Shown in pieces: positions 23,430 to 60,674 of a DNA stretch of 64,000 bases (its first letter is position 1; the number at the start of each line of letters is the position of its first letter). This DNA comes from Thermoplasmata archaeon (GTDB taxonomy: Archaea > Thermoplasmatota > Thermoplasmata > Lutacidiplasmatales > UBA184), in the NCBI GenBank assembly GCA_028864975.1, contig JAGWLG010000002.1, positions 24,043 to 88,042 of the forward strand, read 5' to 3'. A program made the position numbers and the translations under genes. The notes below the pieces were generated by a model, which worked only from the letters and a program-made list of their open reading frames with translations, had not been told where the DNA came from and did no database searches.

Positions 23430-24098
23430 CTACTTCGCGGCCCTAGGTGCGGCCTCGCTCGCACGTGGAGGACCCGTCCCCCCACGTCGACGGGCAGCGC
23501 GAAGGCAGAGGACGAGCGCGGTGACGACGACGACGACGGCCGCGACGACCGCGATGATCGCGAACGTGTCCCCGTCCAGCTGGGGCGAGGAGGGGTTCGC
23601 TGAGGTCCCGGGAAGGACAGAAACCAGGCCCTGCATCGAGGGGTAGTGGTACCGGCAAATGAACTGATAGGTCCCCCAGTTCGGGAACGTCACCGTGAAC
23701 GACGCGGTCTGCGAACCGTTCAGGGATCGGTCGGCGAGAAGGTTGGGCCACGTGAACCAGTCTCCCGGTGCGGTCCCCGGACTGGTGCCGGAAGGTGCGG
23801 TCTGATTAACGAGCGAGGAGAGCGTGAACGTGTGGGAGGCCGTTCCCGCATCGGTGACGGTGAAAGTGACGGTCCGTGAGCTGACGCTTGGGCTGGAGGG
23901 AACGAAGCTCAGTTGGTCCGTCACTTGAAGGCTGATGGTTGCGGTAGCCCCGCTGCCGGCCGAGGGGACGTACCTCGGCGGCGCCCCCGGCCCCATACCC
24001 TGAGAGAGGGTCGGGACGATGAGGAAGAGTAGGACCAGAAAGGCGACCGCTCCCGTCTTGAGGTGGAGAGACCGGGTGAGGGGTTCCGGCGGCATCAT
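23430..24098 (-). CDS. type-1 (blue) copper cupredoxin-domain protein, membrane-anchored (halocyanin/plastocyanin-like)
   Basis: Signal/TM 'AVAFLVLLFLIVPTLS', 'ASHTFTL' (His ligand), 'GTYQFICRYHYPSMQGLV' (Cys-x2-His-x3-Met ligands), C-terminal TM 'FAIIAVVAAVVVVVTALVLCL'. Confidence 0.65.
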   Translation of the reverse strand: MMPPEPLTRSLHLKTGAVAFLVLLFLIVPTLSQGMGPGAPPRYVPSAGSGATATISLQVTDQLSFVPSSPSVSSRTVTFTVTDAGTASHTFTLSSLVNQTAPSGTSPGTAPGDWFTWPNLLADRSLNGSQTASFTVTFPNWGTYQFICRYHYPSMQGLVSVLPGTSANPSSPQLDGDTFAIIAVVAAVVVVVTALVLCLRAARRRGGTGPPRASEAAPRAAK

Positions 24099-51013: not shown

Positions 51014-54000
51014 ATGGCAAGGAACATGCAGAGGACAAGAACGAACTACGCCGAAGTTGCGACGATCGCGCTCCTGGGCCTGGTGCTCCTGGGACTCCTC
51101 ACGCCTGGACCGCTCCGTTCCATGGTCGCCCAAGGCGCGCAAGGGGCCGCTCCCACGCCCGTCGCCGTCGGGGCGCTGCAGGCCGCCTCGGCCGGCGCGG
51201 GGCAGGGGGCCCCCTACGCGGTACATGGGGTCTCGCTCCACCCGCTCAGCGTCGGGGCTTCGGCCTCGGTAGGGACCTCCCGGGCCCCCCTGGCCTCCGG
51301 GGCTTCCCTCGCGGCGGAAGGACCTTCAGCCTCCGTCCCGAACGCCATCAGCCTGGGAAGCAGCTGGGCCGGGATCAACGCGGCCACCGGTTGCGCCTGT
51401 TTCCCACCAGATGGAGCGGAGGGGGAAGGCAACGGCTACGTCGTCCAATCGGTGAACCTGTGGTACCATGTCTGGACCACGGGAGGGACGTCGCAGTGGA
51501 GCGAGTCCGCGTCGACCTTCTTTGGCACGAGCGATGGCCTCTCAGACCCCAAGGTCTTCTACGACAACCAGACCTCGCGCTGGTTCACCTCGTTCCTTGA
51601 TGTGACCAACAACCACCTGTGGATTGCGGTCTCCAAGACCTCGACGCCCACGCAGGGAACGAGCAACTGGGTCATCTCCGACCTTCCAGGACCATCGAAC
51701 GGGGACCTCCCGGACCAACCGATCCTCGGGGTGGACGCGAACAACGTGGTCCTTTCCACGAACGATTTCTCCTCGACGGCCTTCGACGGCGCCGAGGTCT
51801 TCGTTGTCAACAAGACCGCCGTAATGGGGTCCGCCCAGACCGCGTGGGGCTGGACGTGGGGTCCCAACAATAACTATGGTTCGATGCATCCTGCCTACCA
51901 CCTCGACGCGACGAACACGATGTGGTTCGCCACCACCTGTGGAGGGGCTGGGACCAACTGCACCTGGCCGATTGCTGTTGGGAAGCTCACGGGCTCGCCT
52001 CCCGCGACCCCGAACTTCGTGGTCTACAACTACTGGACCTGGACGAACTCGTCTTCACAGCTCCCGCCCGCCGTGGGATTCCAGAAGGGGAGCACGGTCA
52101 AGCTCGACACCGGCGATGACCGGGTGAGCTCCGCCACCTGGACGAACGGGGTCCTCTGGGTCGCCGCGGACGACAGCTGTCGCGCCAGCACCGGCTTCGC
52201 GAGCTGCCTGCACCTCTGGTCCTTCTCCACCTCCGCCGGCACGCCGAGTAAGGTCCAGGACTTCAAGTGGGAGGACAAGGCGAACAGCTTCGACGGCTAC
52301 CCTTCCGTCATCATCGACAAGTACGGGAACGTCGGCGTCTCCTTCGAAGAGGCGAGCAACGCGACGTTCCCCAGCACGTACGTCACGGGGCAGGCCACGA
52401 GCGACCCTGTCAATACCCTAGAAGCGGCTACGCTCGCGAAGGCGGGGGGCGGAGCGATCACCGCGACCCAGAGCAACTTCTGCGCCGGGGTGATCACCTG
52501 CGCCCGATGGGGGGACTATTCGGGCTCGTCGGTCGACCCCACCAACCGGAATCAGTTCTGGATGGAAGCAGAGGACGGCCCGGGGGCCGGCGATAGCTAC
52601 TGGGCGACGTGGGTCCAGGAGTTCCAGTTCCCATACCCAAGTGGTACCCCCACGGTCAACTTCGCCCTCTCCCCGGCGAGCGGGGCGGGCTCGATCTCCT
52701 TCAACAGCGTGACCTACTACAACGGCGGCTCGACCAGCATCGCGACGGGGTCCTACCCTCTGTCCGCGACCACGAACGCCGGATGGCACTTCTCCTCCTG
52801 GTCGACGACGGGAGGTCTCTCCGTGGGGGCGAGCGGGCTCACCGTCTCCTCCTCCGGTACGCTTACCGCGACCTACACGCAGTACGCCAAGGTGACCTTC
52901 GCGATCAACCGTGCCGCCTGCGGGCCGATCACGTTCAACAGCACGACCCAGGCCAACGCTTCGAGCGCGTCGTACTACACGTCGAGCTCGCCGTTCACGG
53001 CGAGCATCCCTGCGTGCGGAGGTGAAACGTTCAGCTCTTGGGCCGTGACGGGCGGAGTGAGCGTCGGCTCGCCGACCGCGCTCAGCACCTCCGTCACGCT
53101 CACGGACAACGGGACGCTCACCGCGAACTTCGTAACGGGCTCTGTCGACGTGGTCACGGTGGCGATTGCCCCTGGTGCGGGGGACGGTTACGTCACGCTC
53201 AGTGGAACCCCCTACTTCAACGGGAACACGGCGAACCTCGCCGCGGGGAGCTACCCGCTCGCGTTCGCAGCGTCACCGGGTTGGGCGTTCTCGACGTGGT
53301 CGGCCACGGGCGGCCTCACCATCGGGGCCGGGACCCTGGCTGTAAGCTCCTCGGGGACCCTCACGGTCACCTTCGTGCAAGACCCGACGCTCAGCTTCAC
53401 GGTGAGCCCAACCTCCTGCCAGCCGATCACCTTCAATGGCAGCACGCCCTGGAACAGCGGGACGTCGGGGAGCTTCTACACCTCGGGGAGCCCGTACACC
53501 GCGTCCGTCGCGGCGTGCTCCGGGTACAGCTTCAGTTCGTGGAGCACTACTGGAGGAGTAGCCGCCGGCAGCCCCTCCGCCACGAGCACGCCGGTCACGC
53601 TGACCGACAACGGCACCCTGACCGCGACGTTCACCGCTTCGTCGGGTGTGACGGTGTCGTTCACGATCTCCCCCGCGTCGCCCTCGTCGGGCGGATCGGT
53701 CACCCTGAACGGCGTGACGTACTACAATGGAGGGTCGGTCTCTATCGCCACGGGGACCTACACGCTCTCCCAGACCCCCGCCCCCGCCTTCCGGTTCTCC
53801 TCGTGGGCCTTCGCCGGTGGGGTCGCGCTCTCGGGCGGCAGCTTGGTCGTGACCGGCGCCGGGACGGTCACTGCGAACTACGTAGCGGTCTACGGGGTGG
53901 CCTTCTCCGTGGCCCCCGCCGCGTGCGCCGCCACCTCGGAGGTCCAGTTCAACGGGACGAACTGGGCGAATGCCGGGAGCGGCACGTTCGCGGGCCTGAC

Positions 54001-55438
54001 CACGAGCGCGCTCGCGGAGCACTGCAACGGCTACCACTTCTCCTCCTGGACCAACTCGGGGGGCGTCACGGTATCCGGGAGCGCTTCCAACCCCACTTCG
54101 ACCACGCTCGCGGGGAACGGAAGCCTGGGCGCGACCTGGGCGGTGAACGGCACGACCACGTTCTCGATCACGCTCGTCGCTTCGCCCGCGAGCTGCGGAC
54201 CGATCTCCTTCAACGCGGGGAGCTATGCGAGCGGGTCCTCGGTCACGATCGCAGCAGGAACCTACGCCCTCTCGGTGGGCTCGTGTTCCGGGTACTCCTT
54301 CTCGAGCTGGTCGGCGACGGGATCGAACGTCGTGGCGTTGCCCTCCGCGTCGAGCACGAGCGTGACCATCGCCTCCGCCGGGACCCTCACGGCGACCTTC
54401 AGCTCCGCGACCACCTATGCGGTCACCGTCTCGACCGCGCCCGCCAGCTGCGGGTCGGTGACCATCAACGGCAACACCTACACGAACGGGATGACCGCCA
54501 ACCTGGCGGCCACCACGTACCCCATCACGACATCGGCCTGCTCGGGCTACTTCCTCGTCCCGAGCTTCGCCTTGACCGGCGGGGTCAGCCTGAATGCCGC
54601 GCATACCCAGCTTACGGTCTCGAACGCGGGCACGCTCGCGATGACCTTCGCAACGACCTTGACCGGTCAAGTGAGCGCCACCCCCGCCAGCACCACCACG
54701 GGCTCTGCCGTCTCCTTCACCCTGACCTTGAGCGGCGGGTTGGGCCCCTACGTGGCCACCTGGAACTTCGGTGATGGTAGCTCGTGGGCCACCACGAACC
54801 TCACCTCGACGAGCGGCACCGAGAGCCACACATTCGGTAGCGCGAACACGTTCACGGTCACGGTGACCGTCCGCGACAGCGTCGGTCAGGTCATCAGCGG
54901 CTCCGTGCCGATCCAGGTCAGCTCGAGCTCCGCGGCAGGCTCCCCCATCCCGCTCTGGGCCCTCGGACTGCTCCTGCTGGTCGTGGTGGCCGCTATCGTC
55001 GCCACGGTGTTGCTCGTCCGACGGCGCAAGAAGTCCCAGGAACTCCTCGCAGGTCCCAACGCGGCCGCCGGAGCTGCCTACGAGCCTGTGCCGTTCCCGT
55101 CCCCCGCCGGCGGCGCTCCGCCGCCGCCCCCGCCGACCTACGGTGCCACGATGGCTCCGGCGCCTCCACCGCCGGTCACGAGCGCCCCTCCCCCGGTGGC
55201 CACGCAGGCGGTCGCGCCCATGCCAGCCCCCGCGCCATTGCCACCGCCCGCTCCGGTCACTCCACCGCGCCCGAGCGCGGCCCCTCGGCCAGGTCCCTAC
55301 CTCACCGAGCGGCAGCGAAGAGCGCAAGAGGCGGCCGCCGCGGCCCCCGCCACGGGATCCGCTGCGACGGAGCCTCCCCCCTCGACCTCGACCCCTTCCG
55401 AAGGGAGCGGGGGGGCGACCGACGGGAACTCGGGCTGA
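51014..55438 (+). CDS. large cell-surface protein: signal peptide, approx. 500-aa N-domain, about 12 divergent InlB B-repeat domains, PKD domain, C-terminal TM anchor, Pro-rich cytoplasmic tail
   Basis: Signal 'VATIALLGLVLLGLL'; repeated approx. 85-aa units '...SPASGAGSISFNSVTYYNGGSTSIATGSYPLSATTNAGWHFSSWSTTGG...TLTATYT'; PKD 'WNFGDGSSWATTNLTSTSGTESHTFGSANTFTVTVTVRDSVGQ'; TM 'LWALGLLLLVVVAAIVATVLLV'. Confidence 0.8.
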   Translation: MARNMQRTRTNYAEVATIALLGLVLLGLLTPGPLRSMVAQGAQGAAPTPVAVGALQAASAGAGQGAPYAVHGVSLHPLSVGASASVGTSRAPLASGASLAAEGPSASVPNAISLGSSWAGINAATGCACFPPDGAEGEGNGYVVQSVNLWYHVWTTGGTSQWSESASTFFGTSDGLSDPKVFYDNQTSRWFTSFLDVTNNHLWIAVSKTSTPTQGTSNWVISDLPGPSNGDLPDQPILGVDANNVVLSTNDFSSTAFDGAEVFVVNKTAVMGSAQTAWGWTWGPNNNYGSMHPAYHLDATNTMWFATTCGGAGTNCTWPIAVGKLTGSPPATPNFVVYNYWTWTNSSSQLPPAVGFQKGSTVKLDTGDDRVSSATWTNGVLWVAADDSCRASTGFASCLHLWSFSTSAGTPSKVQDFKWEDKANSFDGYPSVIIDKYGNVGVSFEEASNATFPSTYVTGQATSDPVNTLEAATLAKAGGGAITATQSNFCAGVITCARWGDYSGSSVDPTNRNQFWMEAEDGPGAGDSYWATWVQEFQFPYPSGTPTVNFALSPASGAGSISFNSVTYYNGGSTSIATGSYPLSATTNAGWHFSSWSTTGGLSVGASGLTVSSSGTLTATYTQYAKVTFAINRAACGPITFNSTTQANASSASYYTSSSPFTASIPACGGETFSSWAVTGGVSVGSPTALSTSVTLTDNGTLTANFVTGSVDVVTVAIAPGAGDGYVTLSGTPYFNGNTANLAAGSYPLAFAASPGWAFSTWSATGGLTIGAGTLAVSSSGTLTVTFVQDPTLSFTVSPTSCQPITFNGSTPWNSGTSGSFYTSGSPYTASVAACSGYSFSSWSTTGGVAAGSPSATSTPVTLTDNGTLTATFTASSGVTVSFTISPASPSSGGSVTLNGVTYYNGGSVSIATGTYTLSQTPAPAFRFSSWAFAGGVALSGGSLVVTGAGTVTANYVAVYGVAFSVAPAACAATSEVQFNGTNWANAGSGTFAGLTTSALAEHCNGYHFSSWTNSGGVTVSGSASNPTSTTLAGNGSLGATWAVNGTTTFSITLVASPASCGPISFNAGSYASGSSVTIAAGTYALSVGSCSGYSFSSWSATGSNVVALPSASSTSVTIASAGTLTATFSSATTYAVTVSTAPASCGSVTINGNTYTNGMTANLAATTYPITTSACSGYFLVPSFALTGGVSLNAAHTQLTVSNAGTLAMTFATTLTGQVSATPASTTTGSAVSFTLTLSGGLGPYVATWNFGDGSSWATTNLTSTSGTESHTFGSANTFTVTVTVRDSVGQVISGSVPIQVSSSSAAGSPIPLWALGLLLLVVVAAIVATVLLVRRRKKSQELLAGPNAAAGAAYEPVPFPSPAGGAPPPPPPTYGATMAPAPPPPVTSAPPPVATQAVAPMPAPAPLPPPAPVTPPRPSAAPRPGPYLTERQRRAQEAAAAAPATGSAATEPPPSTSTPSEGSGGATDGNSG
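52648..54650 (+). repeat. intragenic tandem array of about 12 x approx. 255-bp units encoding divergent InlB B-repeat domains
   Basis: Recurring peptide motif F(S/T)SWS(T/A)TGG(L/V)...G..L.V...GTLTA(T/N)(F/Y) at approx. 85-aa spacing in the translation. Confidence 0.6.
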
Positions 55439-55441
55439 GGC

Positions 55442-56722
55442 TCAGGAGGGGCGAGGCTCCGCGGTCCCGTCGAGCCTCCAGAGGGCTCGGCCCACCGTGG
55501 AGAGGGCCCCGGTCAGCAACAGTCCTCCCCCGGCCACCTCGAGCGCGAACGAGATCCCTCGGTAGGTGATGAGGAGCGCCCCCACGACCTGGGCCACGGG
55601 CATCACGGCATAGCTCAGGATCCCATCGATGGAGAAGTAGCGCCCGCGCATCCGCTCGGGGACGATGGTCTGGGCCGTCGTGAGCCAGGTCGTTCCCGCG
55701 ACCTGCATGACCAGGCTGAAGGCGAAGACGATCGGGACCGAGAGGTAGAAGGAGCCTGACCGCGAGAGGGCGAGCAGCAAGACCCCGCACACGACGCCGT
55801 ACCCAAGGGTCCAGACCTTGCCCGCGTGCTTGACGGCGCGGGTCCTGCCCACGAGCAGGCCGCCTGCGGCGGTCCCCCCGGTCATGGTCGCGAGGAACAG
55901 CCCGAAGGTGAGCGGAGTGCCGTGGAGCCCGAGCGTGACGTAGACGACGATGAACCAGAGGAAGATCGAGGAGAAGAAGTTCATGAAGAGGGCGGAGATG
56001 GAGAGCTCGAAGAGCCCCTTCGAGGAGAGCAGCCAGCGCCCGCCTTCCGCGATCTCCGATAGCATTCGCCGACGTGGTACGGACGCCTCCTCGAGCTTCC
56101 GAGGGAGGCGCTTCGTCCCGACGCTCACCGTGAAGACCAGGGCGGCGGAGAGCAGGAACGTGAGCGTGTTGTACAGCAGGCTCAGGACGACGCCCGCCAC
56201 GAGGAGGAACGTCCCCGCGATGGAGTTCGACAGCATCGAGATGATGGACCGGGAGGAGCGGACGAGACCGTTCGCGTCCGCGAGCTGATGCTTCGGGAGG
56301 ATGGAGGGGATCAGCGACTGCTCGGCCGGGGTGAAGAGCGTACCGACGCACCCTGAGACGAAGGCCACGACGAGGAACATTGGGAGGCTGAACCCCCAAC
56401 GCCAGAACGTGAACGCGAGGGCGCCGATGGCCCCCGCGCGCGCGAGGTCGCTCGCGACCATGACCCGTCGACGGTCGTAGCGGTCGACCCACACGCCCGA
56501 GGGGAGGCTCATGACCACGATCGTGACCGTGGTGACGATCCCCACGAGGGCGATCGCGAAGGCGGACCGGGTCGAGGAGAAGACGATCCACGAGATCGTG
56601 ACGCTGGCGATGGCGCCGCCGCTGATCGAGGTCGCGCCGGCGAGGAAGAGGCGCAGGAAGTTGCGGTCCCGCAGGACCGAAGCGAGCCCCACGCCCGGCG
56701 CGGAGGAGGGGGACGCGCCCAT
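55442..56722 (-). CDS. MFS transporter
   Basis: 12 TM; 'DRYDRRRVMVASDLARAGAIGAL' loop 2-3-like motif. Confidence 0.75.
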   Translation of the reverse strand: MGASPSSAPGVGLASVLRDRNFLRLFLAGATSISGGAIASVTISWIVFSSTRSAFAIALVGIVTTVTIVVMSLPSGVWVDRYDRRRVMVASDLARAGAIGALAFTFWRWGFSLPMFLVVAFVSGCVGTLFTPAEQSLIPSILPKHQLADANGLVRSSRSIISMLSNSIAGTFLLVAGVVLSLLYNTLTFLLSAALVFTVSVGTKRLPRKLEEASVPRRRMLSEIAEGGRWLLSSKGLFELSISALFMNFFSSIFLWFIVVYVTLGLHGTPLTFGLFLATMTGGTAAGGLLVGRTRAVKHAGKVWTLGYGVVCGVLLLALSRSGSFYLSVPIVFAFSLVMQVAGTTWLTTAQTIVPERMRGRYFSIDGILSYAVMPVAQVVGALLITYRGISFALEVAGGGLLLTGALSTVGRALWRLDGTAEPRPS

Positions 56723-56759: not shown

Positions 56760-57482
56760 TCACACCTCGAGCCGGACGACCTCGCGCCCTCCTTCCTTCC
56801 CCAGGAGGCGTGCGACGAGCCCCTCGGCGTCCTTCGCCTTTCCGCGGTGGTAACCTTTGAGCGCGGCTTCGCGCAGCCCATCCGCCCCCATCCCGATGAC
56901 CTCGGCCTCCATCTCTCCGATGGACCCGCTGGGGTCGACAGCGAATAGGCGAGGCTCGTGGGCGAGCGTCGAGGCGATGAGGAGCGAGCAGCCGAGGGGG
57001 CGATCCTCACGCTTCAACGTGTGTTCCCAGAAGTACCGCGAGGCCTCGTCGACGAGCTCGTCCGCGCTCTTCCAGGACTGGCGGCGAAGGTGCCGCACGA
57101 CCGAGCGCCCGTCGGCGACGAGCCCGACCTTGAGGACCGCCACGTGAGGCGAGAGACGGTCGATCTTCCCGCCCGACCTCACGGTGGGGTTCGGTCCCGC
57201 GCTGTAGGCAGCGCCAAGGACCACACCTTTGTCGAAGACCGCCCCTGCGATAGGAAGGCCGCGCCGGGAGGACTCCCGGGCGTACTCGATCTGGTAGATG
57301 CGGCCGTCGGGGGAGAAGTGGTTCACCTTGTCGAAGTCCTGGGCCATCGGGCCGGCCTGCTGGGCGTACGCCACGATGGCAGCGCGGACGAGCTCGGCCT
57401 TGGTGCCGAAGGGGCCCGTGCGGACGAGGGCGTCCAGGTAACGGTCTATCTCGGGTGGGACGGCGAGTCGAATCTCTGCCAT
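56760..57482 (-). CDS. psmA: proteasome subunit alpha with in-frame N-terminal ribbon-helix-helix-like extension (core alpha 56760-57347)
   Basis: 'FDKVNHFSPDGRIYQIEYARE', 'LKVGLVADGRSVV', 'RPLGCSLLIASTLAHEPRLFAVDPSGSIGEMEAEVIGMGADG' are alpha-subunit signatures; upstream in frame 'AEIRLAVPPEIDRYLDALVRTGPFGTKAELVRAAIVAYA' has an RHH (CopG/Arc) pattern with high GC3 and no intervening stop; ATG at 57482. Confidence 0.7.
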   Translation of the reverse strand: MAEIRLAVPPEIDRYLDALVRTGPFGTKAELVRAAIVAYAQQAGPMAQDFDKVNHFSPDGRIYQIEYARESSRRGLPIAGAVFDKGVVLGAAYSAGPNPTVRSGGKIDRLSPHVAVLKVGLVADGRSVVRHLRRQSWKSADELVDEASRYFWEHTLKREDRPLGCSLLIASTLAHEPRLFAVDPSGSIGEMEAEVIGMGADGLREAALKGYHRGKAKDAEGLVARLLGKEGGREVVRLEV

Positions 57483-57507
57483 ACGTCGAAGCTCCGCTAG
57501 GACGTAT

Positions 57508-57544
57508 GTTTCACGTAGTCTTGAAGGATGATGTACGTGAAACA
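57508..57544. promoter_or_regulatory. perfect 10-bp inverted repeat GTTTCACGTA-N17-TACGTGAAAC in an AT-rich island upstream of psmA
   Basis: Read directly from sequence 57508-57517 and 57535-57544; lies 25-60 nt upstream of the ATG at 57482; local AT content far above genome background. Confidence 0.35.
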
Positions 57545-57599
57545 CGGCGTATTCGCGGAGACTTCCTCCGACCCGCTGACGCTCCCGAGGAGCGATCGC

Positions 57600-58391
57600 C
57601 TACCTTCGGGCGACGAGGATCACGTTGGAGAGCTCTCGCCATAGCACGGCGGACTCCCGGAACCCCGCCGCCCGCAGGTACCGCCGGTGCTCCTCCTCCG
57701 ACGGTTCGACCTCGTGGTGGGTCGGCTCAGGGAAGAGGGCGTTCCGTCTCTTGAGCGCCTCGTGCAGCGACGGGTCGCGGCCGGCCTCGCGCCACCATTC
57801 GCGCCACTCGAGGGCGGACCGGCGGACCTCAAGGACCCGTTGTCGTCGATGCAACGTCTCGGAAGCGAGTTCGCGAAGACGGGGGCTCTCCTCTCCCAGA
57901 GGGGCCTTGTCGCCGTTGAGCAGGACCCCTCCGGGGCGGAGCAAGGTCCGAAGGTCTCGGTAGACACGCCGAAGTTGTGGGGGAAGGAACCAGTGCAGTG
58001 CCGTGGTCGAGAGGACCGCGTCGAAGCGCCCCGGGGGCAGGGCGCGGGCCCACGTGGGAGAGCGCAGGTCGCTCTCCACCCAGCGCAGCCGTTGGGCGAC
58101 CGAGGGGGGCGCCGACGTCCTCCCGATCGTGAGGAGGAGCGGGTCGATGTCCACGGCGACCACGCGGGCCCGTGGGAACCTCGCGAGCAGGCGGAAGGAA
58201 AGCGAGCCCGGGCCGCATCCCACGTCCAGGGCGCGGAACGTCGAAGGAAGACCGGCCTCGAGCAGGTCGAACATCGCCGTGAAGCGAGCTTCGCGGGAGG
58301 GAATGTAGCGCGTCTGCATCCGGTCCCACGAGGTCAGGAGGGCCCGGGCACGGGCCCGGGTGAGCGGGGGAGTAGGGGGAGGAGGGGACAT
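57600..58391 (-). CDS. class I SAM-dependent methyltransferase
   Basis: 'FRALDVGCGPGSLSFRLLARFPRARVVAVDIDPLLL', 'FDAVLSTTALHWF', 'LRPGGVLLNGD'. Confidence 0.65.
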   Translation of the reverse strand: MSPPPPTPPLTRARARALLTSWDRMQTRYIPSREARFTAMFDLLEAGLPSTFRALDVGCGPGSLSFRLLARFPRARVVAVDIDPLLLTIGRTSAPPSVAQRLRWVESDLRSPTWARALPPGRFDAVLSTTALHWFLPPQLRRVYRDLRTLLRPGGVLLNGDKAPLGEESPRLRELASETLHRRQRVLEVRRSALEWREWWREAGRDPSLHEALKRRNALFPEPTHHEVEPSEEEHRRYLRAAGFRESAVLWRELSNVILVARR

Positions 58392-58398
58392 GCGACCC

Positions 58399-59451
58399 CT
58401 ACCCGGGGGCCTTGAGCGCGGAGAGCGCCTCGGGATGCTCGGCGAAGTAGCGGTTCGCGGGGGCCATGATCCGCTGGAGGCCGACGGCGACCGAGGCCTT
58501 CAGGTCCTGCGGGTGGAGCTTCCCCTCCTTCCAGGTCGCGAGGAACTCCTCCTCCTTCGAGAAGGAGAGAGGGCCCCCATACTTGGCCGGGCGCTCCACC
58601 TCGAGCTTTCCGAGCCACGGGAGCACCACGTAGCGCGCGAGCTCGAGGACCGGGTTCCCCTCCACCTCCTTCACGGGGCAGAAGGCTCCCTTGAGGCGGT
58701 CCTCGACGACGGCGTCAGGGGACGGGACGGGGATCCCCGAGGTGGGGTCGCTCTTCGACATCTTCCGTTCCATGAGGCCCGGGTCGTCGATGTTCATCCG
58801 GCCGCCGCCCTTGAGGGACGAGATCAGAGGGGTATGGAGGGCGACGGGGACGGGCCATCCGTAGTGGTGGGCCACCTCGCGGGCGAGGACATGGGCCCGC
58901 CGCTGGTCGATCCCCGCGTAGGCCAGGTCGACGGGGAGCTCGAAGATGTCCGCCACCTGCATCGCGGGATAGAAGAGCTTCGCCGCGTCGACCTCAGCCT
59001 CGTCCTCCTTCCTCCCCATGATGGTCACCGCGCGCTTCGCGCGTGCGAGGCTCATCGCCTTGGCGCAGCGGATGACGCGTGCCCAGTAGTTCTCCGAGGC
59101 GACCAGGTCCTTGGCCCATCGGAACCGGACGCCTTCCGCCGCCTCCAGGGCGCGGAAGGTCTCCGACATGGCGCGACCGGCCAGACGGATCCTCTCGAGG
59201 GAGCCTCCGAGCTTGTCGTTGATGAGGGCGTGCCAGTCCGCGAGGAAGACCGTGACCTGGAACCCTGCGTGGGCGAGGTCGCGGACCTTCGCGATCGTGA
59301 CGAGCTGGCCCACGGTGAAGAGCCCGCTCGGTTCGTAGCCGATGTAGGCCTTCGGGTGGTCCTCCCGTGCGAGGAGTGCACGCACCTCTTCGTTAACGAG
59401 GACCTCCTGGGCGTTGCGGAGCACCAGGGCGACGCGCTCTTCGAGGTCCAT
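58399..59451 (-). CDS. tyrS: tyrosine--tRNA ligase, archaeal type
   Basis: 'YIGYEPSGLFTVGQ' (HIGH-region equivalent), 'KMSKS' motif, approx. 350 aa class-I archaeal TyrRS architecture. Confidence 0.9.
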   Translation of the reverse strand: MDLEERVALVLRNAQEVLVNEEVRALLAREDHPKAYIGYEPSGLFTVGQLVTIAKVRDLAHAGFQVTVFLADWHALINDKLGGSLERIRLAGRAMSETFRALEAAEGVRFRWAKDLVASENYWARVIRCAKAMSLARAKRAVTIMGRKEDEAEVDAAKLFYPAMQVADIFELPVDLAYAGIDQRRAHVLAREVAHHYGWPVPVALHTPLISSLKGGGRMNIDDPGLMERKMSKSDPTSGIPVPSPDAVVEDRLKGAFCPVKEVEGNPVLELARYVVLPWLGKLEVERPAKYGGPLSFSKEEEFLATWKEGKLHPQDLKASVAVGLQRIMAPANRYFAEHPEALSALKAPG

Positions 59452-59492: not shown

Positions 59493-60674
59493 TCAGCCGG
59501 GGGGACGGGCGACCGACTCGTCCACCGTCGAGTCGTAGACCTCTCCCGGGGGGACAGCTTCCGCCTCCTCCGGGGAGAGGGCGGAGAGGACCGCCCGCTC
59601 GGTCGCGAGCTCGGCCCGTTGGGTCGCACGACGGAAGGCTAGGACCTCGAAGAGGAGCGCGGCGGCCGGCACCAGGAGCACGAGGACCGCGCTGTCAAGG
59701 AACTCCGTCGCGGGCGAAGGGGAGGACGGGGTGCTCACGCCGGGGACGTCGGCGACGCTCAAGTTCGCCGTAACGGGCTCCGAGGCGGTCGGAGCACGGG
59801 AGGTGGCCTCGAGCGCGCGGTAACCCGAGATGGAGGGGTCGTAGAGCCCCTGGAGCGTCCACGCCGCGAGCGGGCCGGAGGAGAGGGTGCGGAGGACGAC
59901 GGAGAGGGTCGTCGCGTACTGCCGGTAGGAGTTGCAGACGTAGAGCACGCACGAGGTGGAGCTCCCCGGGGGGTAGAGGCGCTGGTAGGTCGCGTTGACC
60001 TGGGCGAACGTGCTCGCGATGGCGCTGCTGCAGGCGCCGCCAACGACGGCGGAGACGGTCGTCGACCACACCCCTCCCGCCCCGAGGGGGAAGGAGAGCC
60101 CTCCGGGCACCGGACGCGAAAGGTTCGCCCAGGAGGTTCCGTTGGGACATTGCCACGCGATCCCCTCCAGGTATCCGTTGACCCCGTCCAGGACCCAACC
60201 CGCGAAGGGCCAGGTCGACGCGACGGGACCGCGGGCGCTCCAGTTCCATCGCTCGAGCACGGGAGTATCATGGGCGCCCGTGAGGGCCAGGTTCAGCGCC
60301 ACGGTCCCCCCGTTCGGAAGGACCGACCCCTCGTAGGTCGAGTCCGCGACGTACGTCCAAGTTGCGGTCCCGAGGACGGGTGGGGGCCCGTAGGTGGGGT
60401 CCCGCGCGGGGGGAAGCAGGAGGGGGAGCACGACGAGCGAGGCGACCCAGAGGGCGAGGTAGAGGAGGAGGCGGCGCCGGGCCTGCACGTGGTGGGCAAG
60501 GGAAGGGCGCCCATACCCTTTCTCGCCGCACGTCGCACCGAAATCGGGGTGCGAGCGCGCCTCGGGGCCGAGCGTGGGCGACCGACCTCGGCCCCCCAGC
60601 GCGGCCTGAGCCTCCTGAAGGAGCCTTGCGACGGGAGGACTTGCGCCCCGGGGCCCACCTTCCACCCTCCCCAT
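59493..60674 (-). CDS. bitopic membrane protein with Cys-containing extracellular domain, hypothetical
   Basis: N-terminal TM 'LLLYLALWVASLVVLPLLL', approx. 270-aa Ser/Thr/Gly-rich ectodomain with 4 Cys, C-terminal TM 'AVLVLLVPAAALLFEVLAF'. Confidence 0.45.
   Translation of the reverse strand: MGRVEGGPRGASPPVARLLQEAQAALGGRGRSPTLGPEARSHPDFGATCGEKGYGRPSLAHHVQARRRLLLYLALWVASLVVLPLLLPPARDPTYGPPPVLGTATWTYVADSTYEGSVLPNGGTVALNLALTGAHDTPVLERWNWSARGPVASTWPFAGWVLDGVNGYLEGIAWQCPNGTSWANLSRPVPGGLSFPLGAGGVWSTTVSAVVGGACSSAIASTFAQVNATYQRLYPPGSSTSCVLYVCNSYRQYATTLSVVLRTLSSGPLAAWTLQGLYDPSISGYRALEATSRAPTASEPVTANLSVADVPGVSTPSSPSPATEFLDSAVLVLLVPAAALLFEVLAFRRATQRAELATERAVLSALSPEEAEAVPPGEVYDSTVDESVARPPG

Follow-up and report, generated by a model that had tools for sequence, protein, structure and literature searches.

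We analysed a 64,000-nucleotide (nt) stretch of a Thermoplasmata archaeon genome (GenBank assembly GCA_028864975.1, contig JAGWLG010000002.1, forward-strand positions 24,043 to 88,042), hereafter the window, and focused on one gene of its reverse strand that encodes a 240-amino-acid (aa) fusion protein. Its N-terminus is a small domain of the ribbon-helix-helix (RHH) type and the remainder is a diverged proteasome alpha-like domain. On balance we favor the view that this is an autoregulated RHH DNA-binding protein with a diverged proteasome alpha paralogue as its effector domain, in a layout like that of NikR. Well over 150 independent contigs, drawn from many samples and from two phyla, share this architecture. 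Additionally, the upstream region of the gene carries a position-locked array of short boxes that is specific to this region and common to Asgard and Thermoplasmatota members of the family. RHH regulators with C-terminal effector domains are already known, as are alpha paralogues. To our knowledge, proteasome alpha subunits act as gate-keepers of the 20S particle and not as parts of DNA-binding proteins. The alpha fold as effector domain of an RHH regulator, combined with a conserved operator-like array, appears to be new, and full-text literature searches aimed at an RHH-alpha fusion found no description of one.

The fusion protein and its two domains

The open reading frame (ORF) list of the window runs the frame upstream as far as a GTG at 57545, which falls within the arm region of an inverted repeat described below. 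The realistic start of the gene is the ATG at 57482, yielding the 240-aa protein; at this position every homologue has the N-terminus M-x-E-[IVL]-R. The frame is open and of uniform composition, with a G+C content at third codon positions (GC3) of 0.84 for codons 1–45 and 0.87 for codons 46–240. A first-pass annotation of this DNA had placed the RHH module and the proteasome alpha part in one open frame, and comparison with ~175 homologous fusions bears this out as a single conserved polypeptide. The coding-like composition that it assigned to the first 45 codons also stands, while its GC3 of about 90% is replaced by the measured value. An internal start at Met46 (57347) was considered and rejected: this residue is L, I or F in many relatives, and separate translation of the alpha part is therefore not conserved. 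The window protein is a 100% match to the protein "hypothetical protein KGJ23_03160, Euryarchaeota archaeon" of a metagenome-assembled genome (MAG) at NCBI, and the identical protein is present on 4 contigs, the longest of 248,739 bp.

In order to define the distribution of the fusion, we searched with the whole protein and with its N-terminal module. At least ~110 full-length homologues (233–253 aa, 38–68% identity) were recovered, all from uncultured Thermoplasmatota and, among the matches listed, all with the N-terminal module. GTDB species-representative genomes contain 13 fusion loci, with no cultured organism among them; 12 of these are labelled as Thermoplasmata, Thermoplasmatota, Methanobacteriota, Methanomassiliicoccales or DHVE2 MAGs. 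The remaining locus (L011, VBOD01000062.1) carries the bin label "Nitrospirae bacterium", the single non-archaeal assignment in the family, and is probably a mis-binned contig. When metagenomes were scanned with the 44-aa N-terminal alignment alone, 65 of the 66 loci found had the module fused to an alpha-like domain. A profile of the module was also run against 1.84 billion cluster representatives. The fusions ranked first, and stand-alone RHH proteins of 48–89 aa with the same signature appeared only beneath E ~1e-9. The names that databases give to members say little about them ("hypothetical protein", "peptidase", "20S proteasome alpha/beta subunit").

Longer fusions of 273–301 aa retain the full alpha length and include ~45 Asgard forms, with lengths of 278–301 aa in Asgard MAGs; relatives of one such protein, P0136, are assigned by name at NCBI to Candidatus Hodarchaeota and Promethearchaeota (Asgard). 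Three long forms of 278–283 aa lie on Asgard MAG contigs (L153:8001-8852, L154:8001-8837 and L155:4041-4892), where neighboring genes include the typical Asgard markers Arf/Roc GTPase and TackOD1. Separately, a group of stand-alone RHH proteins of 55–75 aa (P0147, P0151, P0153, P0156, P0158, P0160, P0162 and P0174) begins with MPELRV and contains G-[LA]-[FY]-x-[ST]-K-A-[ED], as in the fused module. The stand-alone proteins may be relatives of the ancestor of the fused domain.

The RHH assignment of amino acids 1–44 draws on matches of relatives and on predicted structure. Of 24 family N-termini compared with Pfam, 17 matched RHH_1 (best E 3.4e-5) and 9 matched ParD_antitoxin, and one relative (P0102) has a precomputed PF01402 match. 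The full window protein gave VapB at E 0.1 and ParD CC2985 at E 0.015, and the family profile aligned in register with the ParD structures 7b22 and 3kxe (E ~0.1). In the AlphaFold2 (AF2) model of the domain, with a predicted local distance difference test score (pLDDT) of 89, an extended segment (residues 1–9) is followed by helix A (10–22) and helix B (28–43), in agreement with the beta-alpha-alpha layout of the ~45-aa RHH unit; the full-length model shows the same N-terminal extended segment and two helices. A Foldseek search of the PDB with this domain returned only RHH proteins among the top 18 matches (ParD, PrpA, NikR and Reg576), with template modeling (TM) scores of 0.63–0.84 (most 0.72–0.84), root-mean-square deviations of 1.1–3.2 Å (all but one ≤2.1 Å) and E-values of 0.4–4.

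RHH dimers form an antiparallel beta-ribbon that is inserted into the DNA major groove, and the N-cap motif of helix B contacts the DNA phosphate backbone. Indirect support for such dimers in the family comes from the short boxes, phased and in part palindromic, in front of the gene itself (see below). The family has this superfamily motif (G-x-x-x-[STN]-[KR]-[SA]-E) in the turn between its helices, which reads G23-x-F-x-x-K28-A-E30. Residues M1, E3, R5, D13, G23, K28, E30, L31 and R33 are invariant, and conservation of F25 and A29 is 90% or higher; the predicted ribbon strand includes E3 and R5. Taken together, the matches of relatives and the structural models support the RHH (CopG/ParD/NikR) assignment of amino acids 1–44, and the fold that the first-pass annotation had proposed from a near-ideal CopG/Arc pattern holds.

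The remainder of the protein matches the Pfam Proteasome family PF00227 (67 bits) and carries the alpha N-terminal signature PF10584 at aa 54–70. It comprises an H0 helix and a beta-sandwich, and the best Foldseek matches of the full AF2 model (pLDDT 85) are the alpha subunits of T. acidophilum and A. fulgidus (E 1e-16, TM ~0.7). The window protein reached 83.6 bits against a cut-off of 287 for TIGR03633 and 90.7 bits against a cut-off of 219 for PRK03996; family members score 80–190 bits (long forms 115–190) and all are beneath the archaeal alpha cut-offs. Alignment with T. acidophilum alpha shows that 9 residues after H1 are missing from the window form, as are the C-terminal strand and helix; the protein ends after the strand that aligns with IASITV. 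It also has one residue fewer between the F/Y-D and FSP motifs than PsmA. The alpha part is ~35–40 aa shorter than the T. acidophilum subunit, in agreement with the ~35 aa estimated initially. No psmA or psmB was found by tblastn in the window or beside the family gene in 88 loci (the window, 84 family loci and 3 Asgard loci). Because its scores are far under the cut-offs, and because it is truncated and unlinked to psmB, the gene is better described as a diverged alpha paralogue than as canonical psmA, the identity it had first been given.

To analyze residue conservation in this domain, we counted gate and pocket positions over 105 members in T. acidophilum numbering; the alignment to this reference is consistent with the HMMER ranges to 1pma. 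Residues D9, P17, G19, R20, Y26, R28 and G80 are unchanged in 100% of the members and E25 and D84 in 99%. Position Y8 is F or Y in 100%, K33 is replaced by R in 95%, and K66 is retained as K in 93%. The set of residues tested for the gate switch and for the pocket that receives HbYX (hydrophobic-tyrosine-any residue) tails, Y8, D9, P17, G19, Y26, K33, K66, G80 and L81, is 93–100% conserved or conservatively replaced. The HbYX pocket forms between neighboring alpha subunits, and its conservation therefore suggests that ring-type neighbor contacts are retained by the alpha-like domain together with the binding of C-terminal peptides. In proteasomes, HbYX tails dock in the pockets of the alpha ring, and the roles of the gate-switch and pocket residues have been described (PMC10349882). 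The free gating N-terminal tail of PsmA is replaced in the fusion by the 45-aa folded RHH domain.

The box array upstream of the fusion gene

At the window locus, the region upstream of the ATG contains ACGT cores at -56..-53, -34..-31, -23..-20 and -4..-1, of which the first two belong to a perfect inverted repeat (Table 1). The first-pass annotation had noted this repeat as perfect, which it is, with a spacer of 17 nt, which measures 16. Its suggestion of an operator is borne out as plausible, the repeat being part of a motif array kept across the whole family. A second, imperfect repeat with 13-nt arms (85% complementary, 57480-57508) encloses the Shine-Dalgarno sequence and the ATG. Within the window, the repeat 10-mer with at most one mismatch occurs 4 times against 0.52 expected, and ACGTA-N8-30-TACGT occurs at this site only, against 0.02 expected; none of the ACGTA/TACGT-core patterns has a second site in the 64 kb (0.02–0.12 expected). 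In an alignment by eye, the spacer of the perfect repeat falls where the closest relatives, L087 (TTAAATATACTTCAAGAC) and L001 (TATAGAATACTTCAAAAC), have their TATA box, which suggests a promoter role for it.

To define the element across the family, 59 non-redundant upstream regions (GC 22–65%) were aligned at the ATG. Starts of TAC[GA] concentrate at exactly -46 (23 cases), -35 (34) and -24 (19), and paired boxes are mostly 11 bp (45 pairs) or 22 bp (18 pairs) apart. The information content of the alignment columns is periodic, and the consensus of the box unit is RAMTAC[GA]YYAW. A GGAG is located at -13 in 41 of the 59 regions. Directly 5' of the ATG, [GA]CGT is conserved and reads CATACG on the opposite strand, an inverted box that includes the start codon. 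At least one pair of T[AC]C[GA] boxes 11 bp apart was found in 44 of 62 family upstream regions, with a triple in 18. Among 262 control upstream regions taken from these loci, 7 had such a pair (Fisher p = 3e-32, uncorrected for relatedness), and shuffled family regions gave a mean of 0.6 of 62.

Three Asgard loci share this layout, with TATCCGT/TATCCAT boxes 11 bp apart just 5' of GGAG. In lineages whose boxes read TCC[GA]T, the ATG tends to be preceded by GACGG or GATGG, not GACGT, and the ribbon strand to carry P2/V6, not T2/T6. This pattern hints at co-variation between the protein and its putative site, with phylogeny as a confounder. Members of the main clade have an AT-rich TATA-like element near -60..-52; judged from it, transcription would start at the -35 box, with the -46 box lying between TATA and that start and the -24 box falling within the leader. 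Over ~500 kb comprising the window and its flanks, every three-box array above ~11 bits is upstream of the family gene itself, a result in which only the absence of arrays elsewhere is informative, since these very sites had served to train the scanning matrix. No second box array or other regulon member was detected in the 64-kb window or in ~500 kb of flanks. A scan for sigma-70 promoters and intrinsic terminators, the models for which are not applicable to archaea, found nothing.

Table 1. Coordinates of the fusion gene, its upstream elements and neighboring genes. Positions refer to the window except where a locus is named.
Feature	Position	Strand	Remarks
ORF	56760..57545	-	ORF list of the window
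RHH-alpha-like fusion coding sequence	56760..57482	-	240 aa plus TGA stop at 56760-56762
RHH domain, aa 1-44	57351..57482	-	Pfam on relatives, AF2, Foldseek
Diverged proteasome alpha-like domain, aa 46-240	56763..57347	-	Pfam, NCBIfam, AF2/Foldseek, residue mapping
Shine-Dalgarno GGAG	57492..57495	-	-13..-10 from ATG 57482
Upstream arm of perfect inverted repeat, TGTTTCACGTA	57534..57544	-	11 nt
ACGT-core box in upstream arm	57535-57538	-	-56..-53 from ATG
Spacer CATCATCCTTCAAGAC	57518..57533	-	16 nt, between the repeat arms
Downstream arm of perfect inverted repeat, TACGTGAAACA	57507..57517	-	11 nt; family box at -35
ACGT core of downstream arm	57513-57516	-	22 bp from upstream core
Box at -24, CATACGTC	57499..57506	-	ACGT core 57502-57505
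Inverted box over start codon, GACGTATG	57480..57487	-	Reverse complement is CATACGTC
Further TACG box, GAATACGCC	57548..57551	-	-69..-66; 1 base off the 11-bp phase; weak evidence
MFS transporter gene	55442-56722	-	37 nt after stop of fusion gene; preceded by GAGGGG
1474-aa protein, PKD and InlB B-repeat-like domains	51014-55438	+	Convergent with MFS gene
Class I methyltransferase gene	57600-58391		Window neighbor
Tyrosyl-tRNA synthetase (TyrRS) gene	58399-59451		Window neighbor
393-aa ORF upstream of TyrRS	59493-60674	-	No Pfam match at E<=0.001
PAC2-family genes at other loci	L012:5740-6507, L128:3723-4508, L133:3698-4498, L136:1431-2084, L137:3736-4509		Directly after or overlapping the fusion gene; also at L135, where the gene is cut off

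A proposed regulator with a proteasome alpha-like domain, and rival explanations

If the fusion is an autoregulated regulator, its RHH dimers would line up along a single face of the DNA by recognizing the partly palindromic boxes, 11 bp being one helical turn. With boxes between TATA and the start codon, binding would block recruitment of TBP, TFB and RNA polymerase and would repress the gene. Residue conservation suggests that the alpha-like domain would supply higher-order oligomerization and in this way allow cooperative DNA binding. Because the HbYX-pocket and gate-switch residues are kept, the domain is probably signal-receiving, and the input would reach the retained pocket. Candidate signals are the C-termini of PAC2 chaperones, PAN or Cdc48, and contact with proteasome subunits, HbYX tails being the most obvious candidate for the pocket.

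NikR resembles the fusion in its N-terminal RHH domain, whose sequence is very close in type (G-x-x-x-[NS]-[KR]-[SA]-E-x-[IV]-R) and which is among the top structural matches, and in the placement of a C-terminal oligomerizing, signal-receiving domain behind it. The NikR operator is GTATGA-N16-TCATAC (PMC7055735). In the window repeat (ACGTA-N16-TACGT) the half-sites are likewise N16 apart and their centers 22 bp apart, a spacing that we take as a resemblance in how the two would work and not as evidence of membership. Unlike NikR, the fusion has a C-terminus with a proteasome alpha fold in place of the ACT-like nickel-binding tetramerization domain, and most family members have 2–3 direct boxes at 11-bp spacing and not one palindrome.

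Other RHH proteins are informative as well. ParD/CopG-type proteins, the best sequence and structure matches for aa 1–44, are typically autorepressors acting on repeats in their own promoters. In contrast to these proteins, the fusion lacks a partner toxin gene and a disordered toxin-binding tail, and its RHH domain is joined to a 195-aa globular domain. No toxin-like ORF (ParE/RelE-type) adjoins the fusion gene in the window and no small neighbor recurs over 60 loci. RHH repressors of the MetJ and omega types, too, have several short phased boxes with an ACGT-like core, which are presumably bound cooperatively by neighboring dimers. The period of those boxes is 8 or 7 bp, as compared with 11 bp in the family array, and, unlike in MetJ and omega, cooperativity in the fusion would need the alpha-like domain.

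The main rival, which we consider rather unlikely, is that the protein functions as a proteasome alpha subunit within 20S particles or alpha rings, be it the only such subunit or an alternative isoform. Altered gating of the 20S pore, which the first-pass annotation had considered, would likewise presuppose that the protein enters a 20S particle. The RHH domain would then be a cap over the pore, or a dimerization or docking module and possibly a DNA tether, while the boxes would serve autoregulation or belong to another factor. The protein shares with PsmA its fold, the H0 helix, PF10584, a YDR-like gate motif, the P17/G19/Y26 switch and the pocket lysine K66, and this near-invariance of gate and pocket residues favors a subunit, as do the full alpha length and scores of up to 190 bits of the long forms and the name "proteasome subunit alpha" given by NCBI to some Asgard members. 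Additionally, in six loci a PAC2-family gene (PF09754, E 2e-42) lies directly after or overlaps the fusion gene, an apparent operon confined to one Thermoplasmata subclade, and the subclade PAC2 protein ends in VMYG, an HbYX-like tail. The PAC2 and PbaA-PbaB assembly chaperones are possible partners of the fusion and not its homologues; a PAC2 gene is missing from the window and from most family loci. A subunit is hard to reconcile with scores that place all members below the equivalog and subfamily cut-offs, or with the loss from the window form and other 240-aa fusions of the C-terminal strand and helix and of the 9 residues after H1. Nor is psmA or psmB adjacent in any of the 88 loci, and no linkage to the exosome operon was seen at the loci inspected. 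In addition, the gate-forming tail has given way to a folded domain, and the conservation of the cis-element across phyla argues for use of the RHH domain in DNA binding. If the protein did prove to be a genuine alpha isoform, no earlier alpha subunit would be known to have a folded N-terminal domain above its pore.

We give still less credence to translational control by the boxes in the mRNA leader, whether they would sequester the Shine-Dalgarno sequence and AUG in a hairpin or serve as a phased RNA site for protein binding. The boxes are fixed relative to the ATG and Shine-Dalgarno sequence at single-nucleotide resolution, and at the window locus the third and fourth boxes form a hairpin (-14 kcal/mol, z = -3.15) that holds GGAG and AUG, as a leader element would. 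Across the family, however, leaders fold no better than shuffled sequences (median z -0.79, with 9 of 59 below -2), the AUG is fully paired in just 4 of 59, and there is no symmetric or conserved pairing register. Conservation lies in sequence and phase and not in pairing, the pattern that recognition of DNA by a protein would produce. The -46 and -35 boxes are probably upstream of or at the transcription start, and RHH domains are binders of double-stranded DNA. There was no Rfam match, and a conserved RNA structure or known RNA family is not supported.

An artefact of assembly or sequencing can be dismissed, and so can the false merger of a small RHH gene, such as a ParD-type antitoxin, with psmA through a hidden stop or frameshift. 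Nothing was found in favor of either, and against them the architecture recurs in independent homologues, the same protein stands on several contigs, codon composition is uniform across the junction, Met46 is not conserved, no toxin-like ORF adjoins, and related loci keep the fusion where the first-pass annotation had allowed for a separate small RHH gene.

Several observations weigh against an autoregulated RHH regulator. Taken alone, the 44-aa N-terminus of the window protein matches nothing in Pfam at E≤1, and the sequence and fold E-values of the RHH domain against the PDB are weak because the domain is small. A structural role in the proteasome would account for the strict conservation of gate and pocket no less well than a sensor role, and an alpha ring with an odd number of subunits is difficult to combine with an RHH domain that is obligately dimeric. 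The boxes are locked to the ATG and Shine-Dalgarno sequence and not to TATA, which would also fit an element at the mRNA level, and they could be bound by another factor. Lastly, the motif statistics ignore phylogenetic relatedness.

The docking pocket and gate switch of an alpha subunit have been kept over long evolution in both Thermoplasmatota and Asgard, alongside a DNA-binding domain and an operator-like array, which suggests a link between proteasome parts and gene regulation. If the regulator model is true, the fusion would be an archaeal transcription factor whose sensor is a proteasome part, and would offer a testable route into the regulation of archaeal proteasome-related genes, which is poorly understood. 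A further idea, which we consider doubtful, is that the protein couples proteasome status to transcription. It would form alpha-type rings, or mixed rings with the canonical alpha subunit, and its HbYX pocket would sense free C-termini of PAC2, PAN or Cdc48, or unassembled subunits, switching DNA binding by the RHH domain on or off. Alternatively, a proteasome-like particle would be recruited to specific DNA sites. Such coupling would amount to an archaeal feedback loop from proteasome assembly or load to transcription, with a logic comparable to that of Rpn4 or Nrf1 in eukaryotes, and the presence of the fusion in Hodarchaeota and Promethearchaeota would place this link in the archaeal lineage nearest to eukaryotes.

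Neighboring genes and minor features

Apart from PAC2 in the one subclade, gene neighborhood is not conserved over 60 loci. In the window, the fusion gene and the MFS transporter gene that follows it on the same strand may be co-transcribed. MFS genes are located downstream of the fusion gene in 5 loci, with L005, L009, L014 and L018 in addition to the window, and the window MFS gave no BLAST match to the MFS genes of other loci. Between 57560 and 57599 on the reverse strand, after the methyltransferase stop, are short GC-rich palindromes or hairpins (GCGATCGC; GCTCC-TCG-GGAGC; GGAG-GAAGT-CTCC) with no T-run following. The 1474-aa protein encoded convergently with the MFS gene is probably a surface protein.

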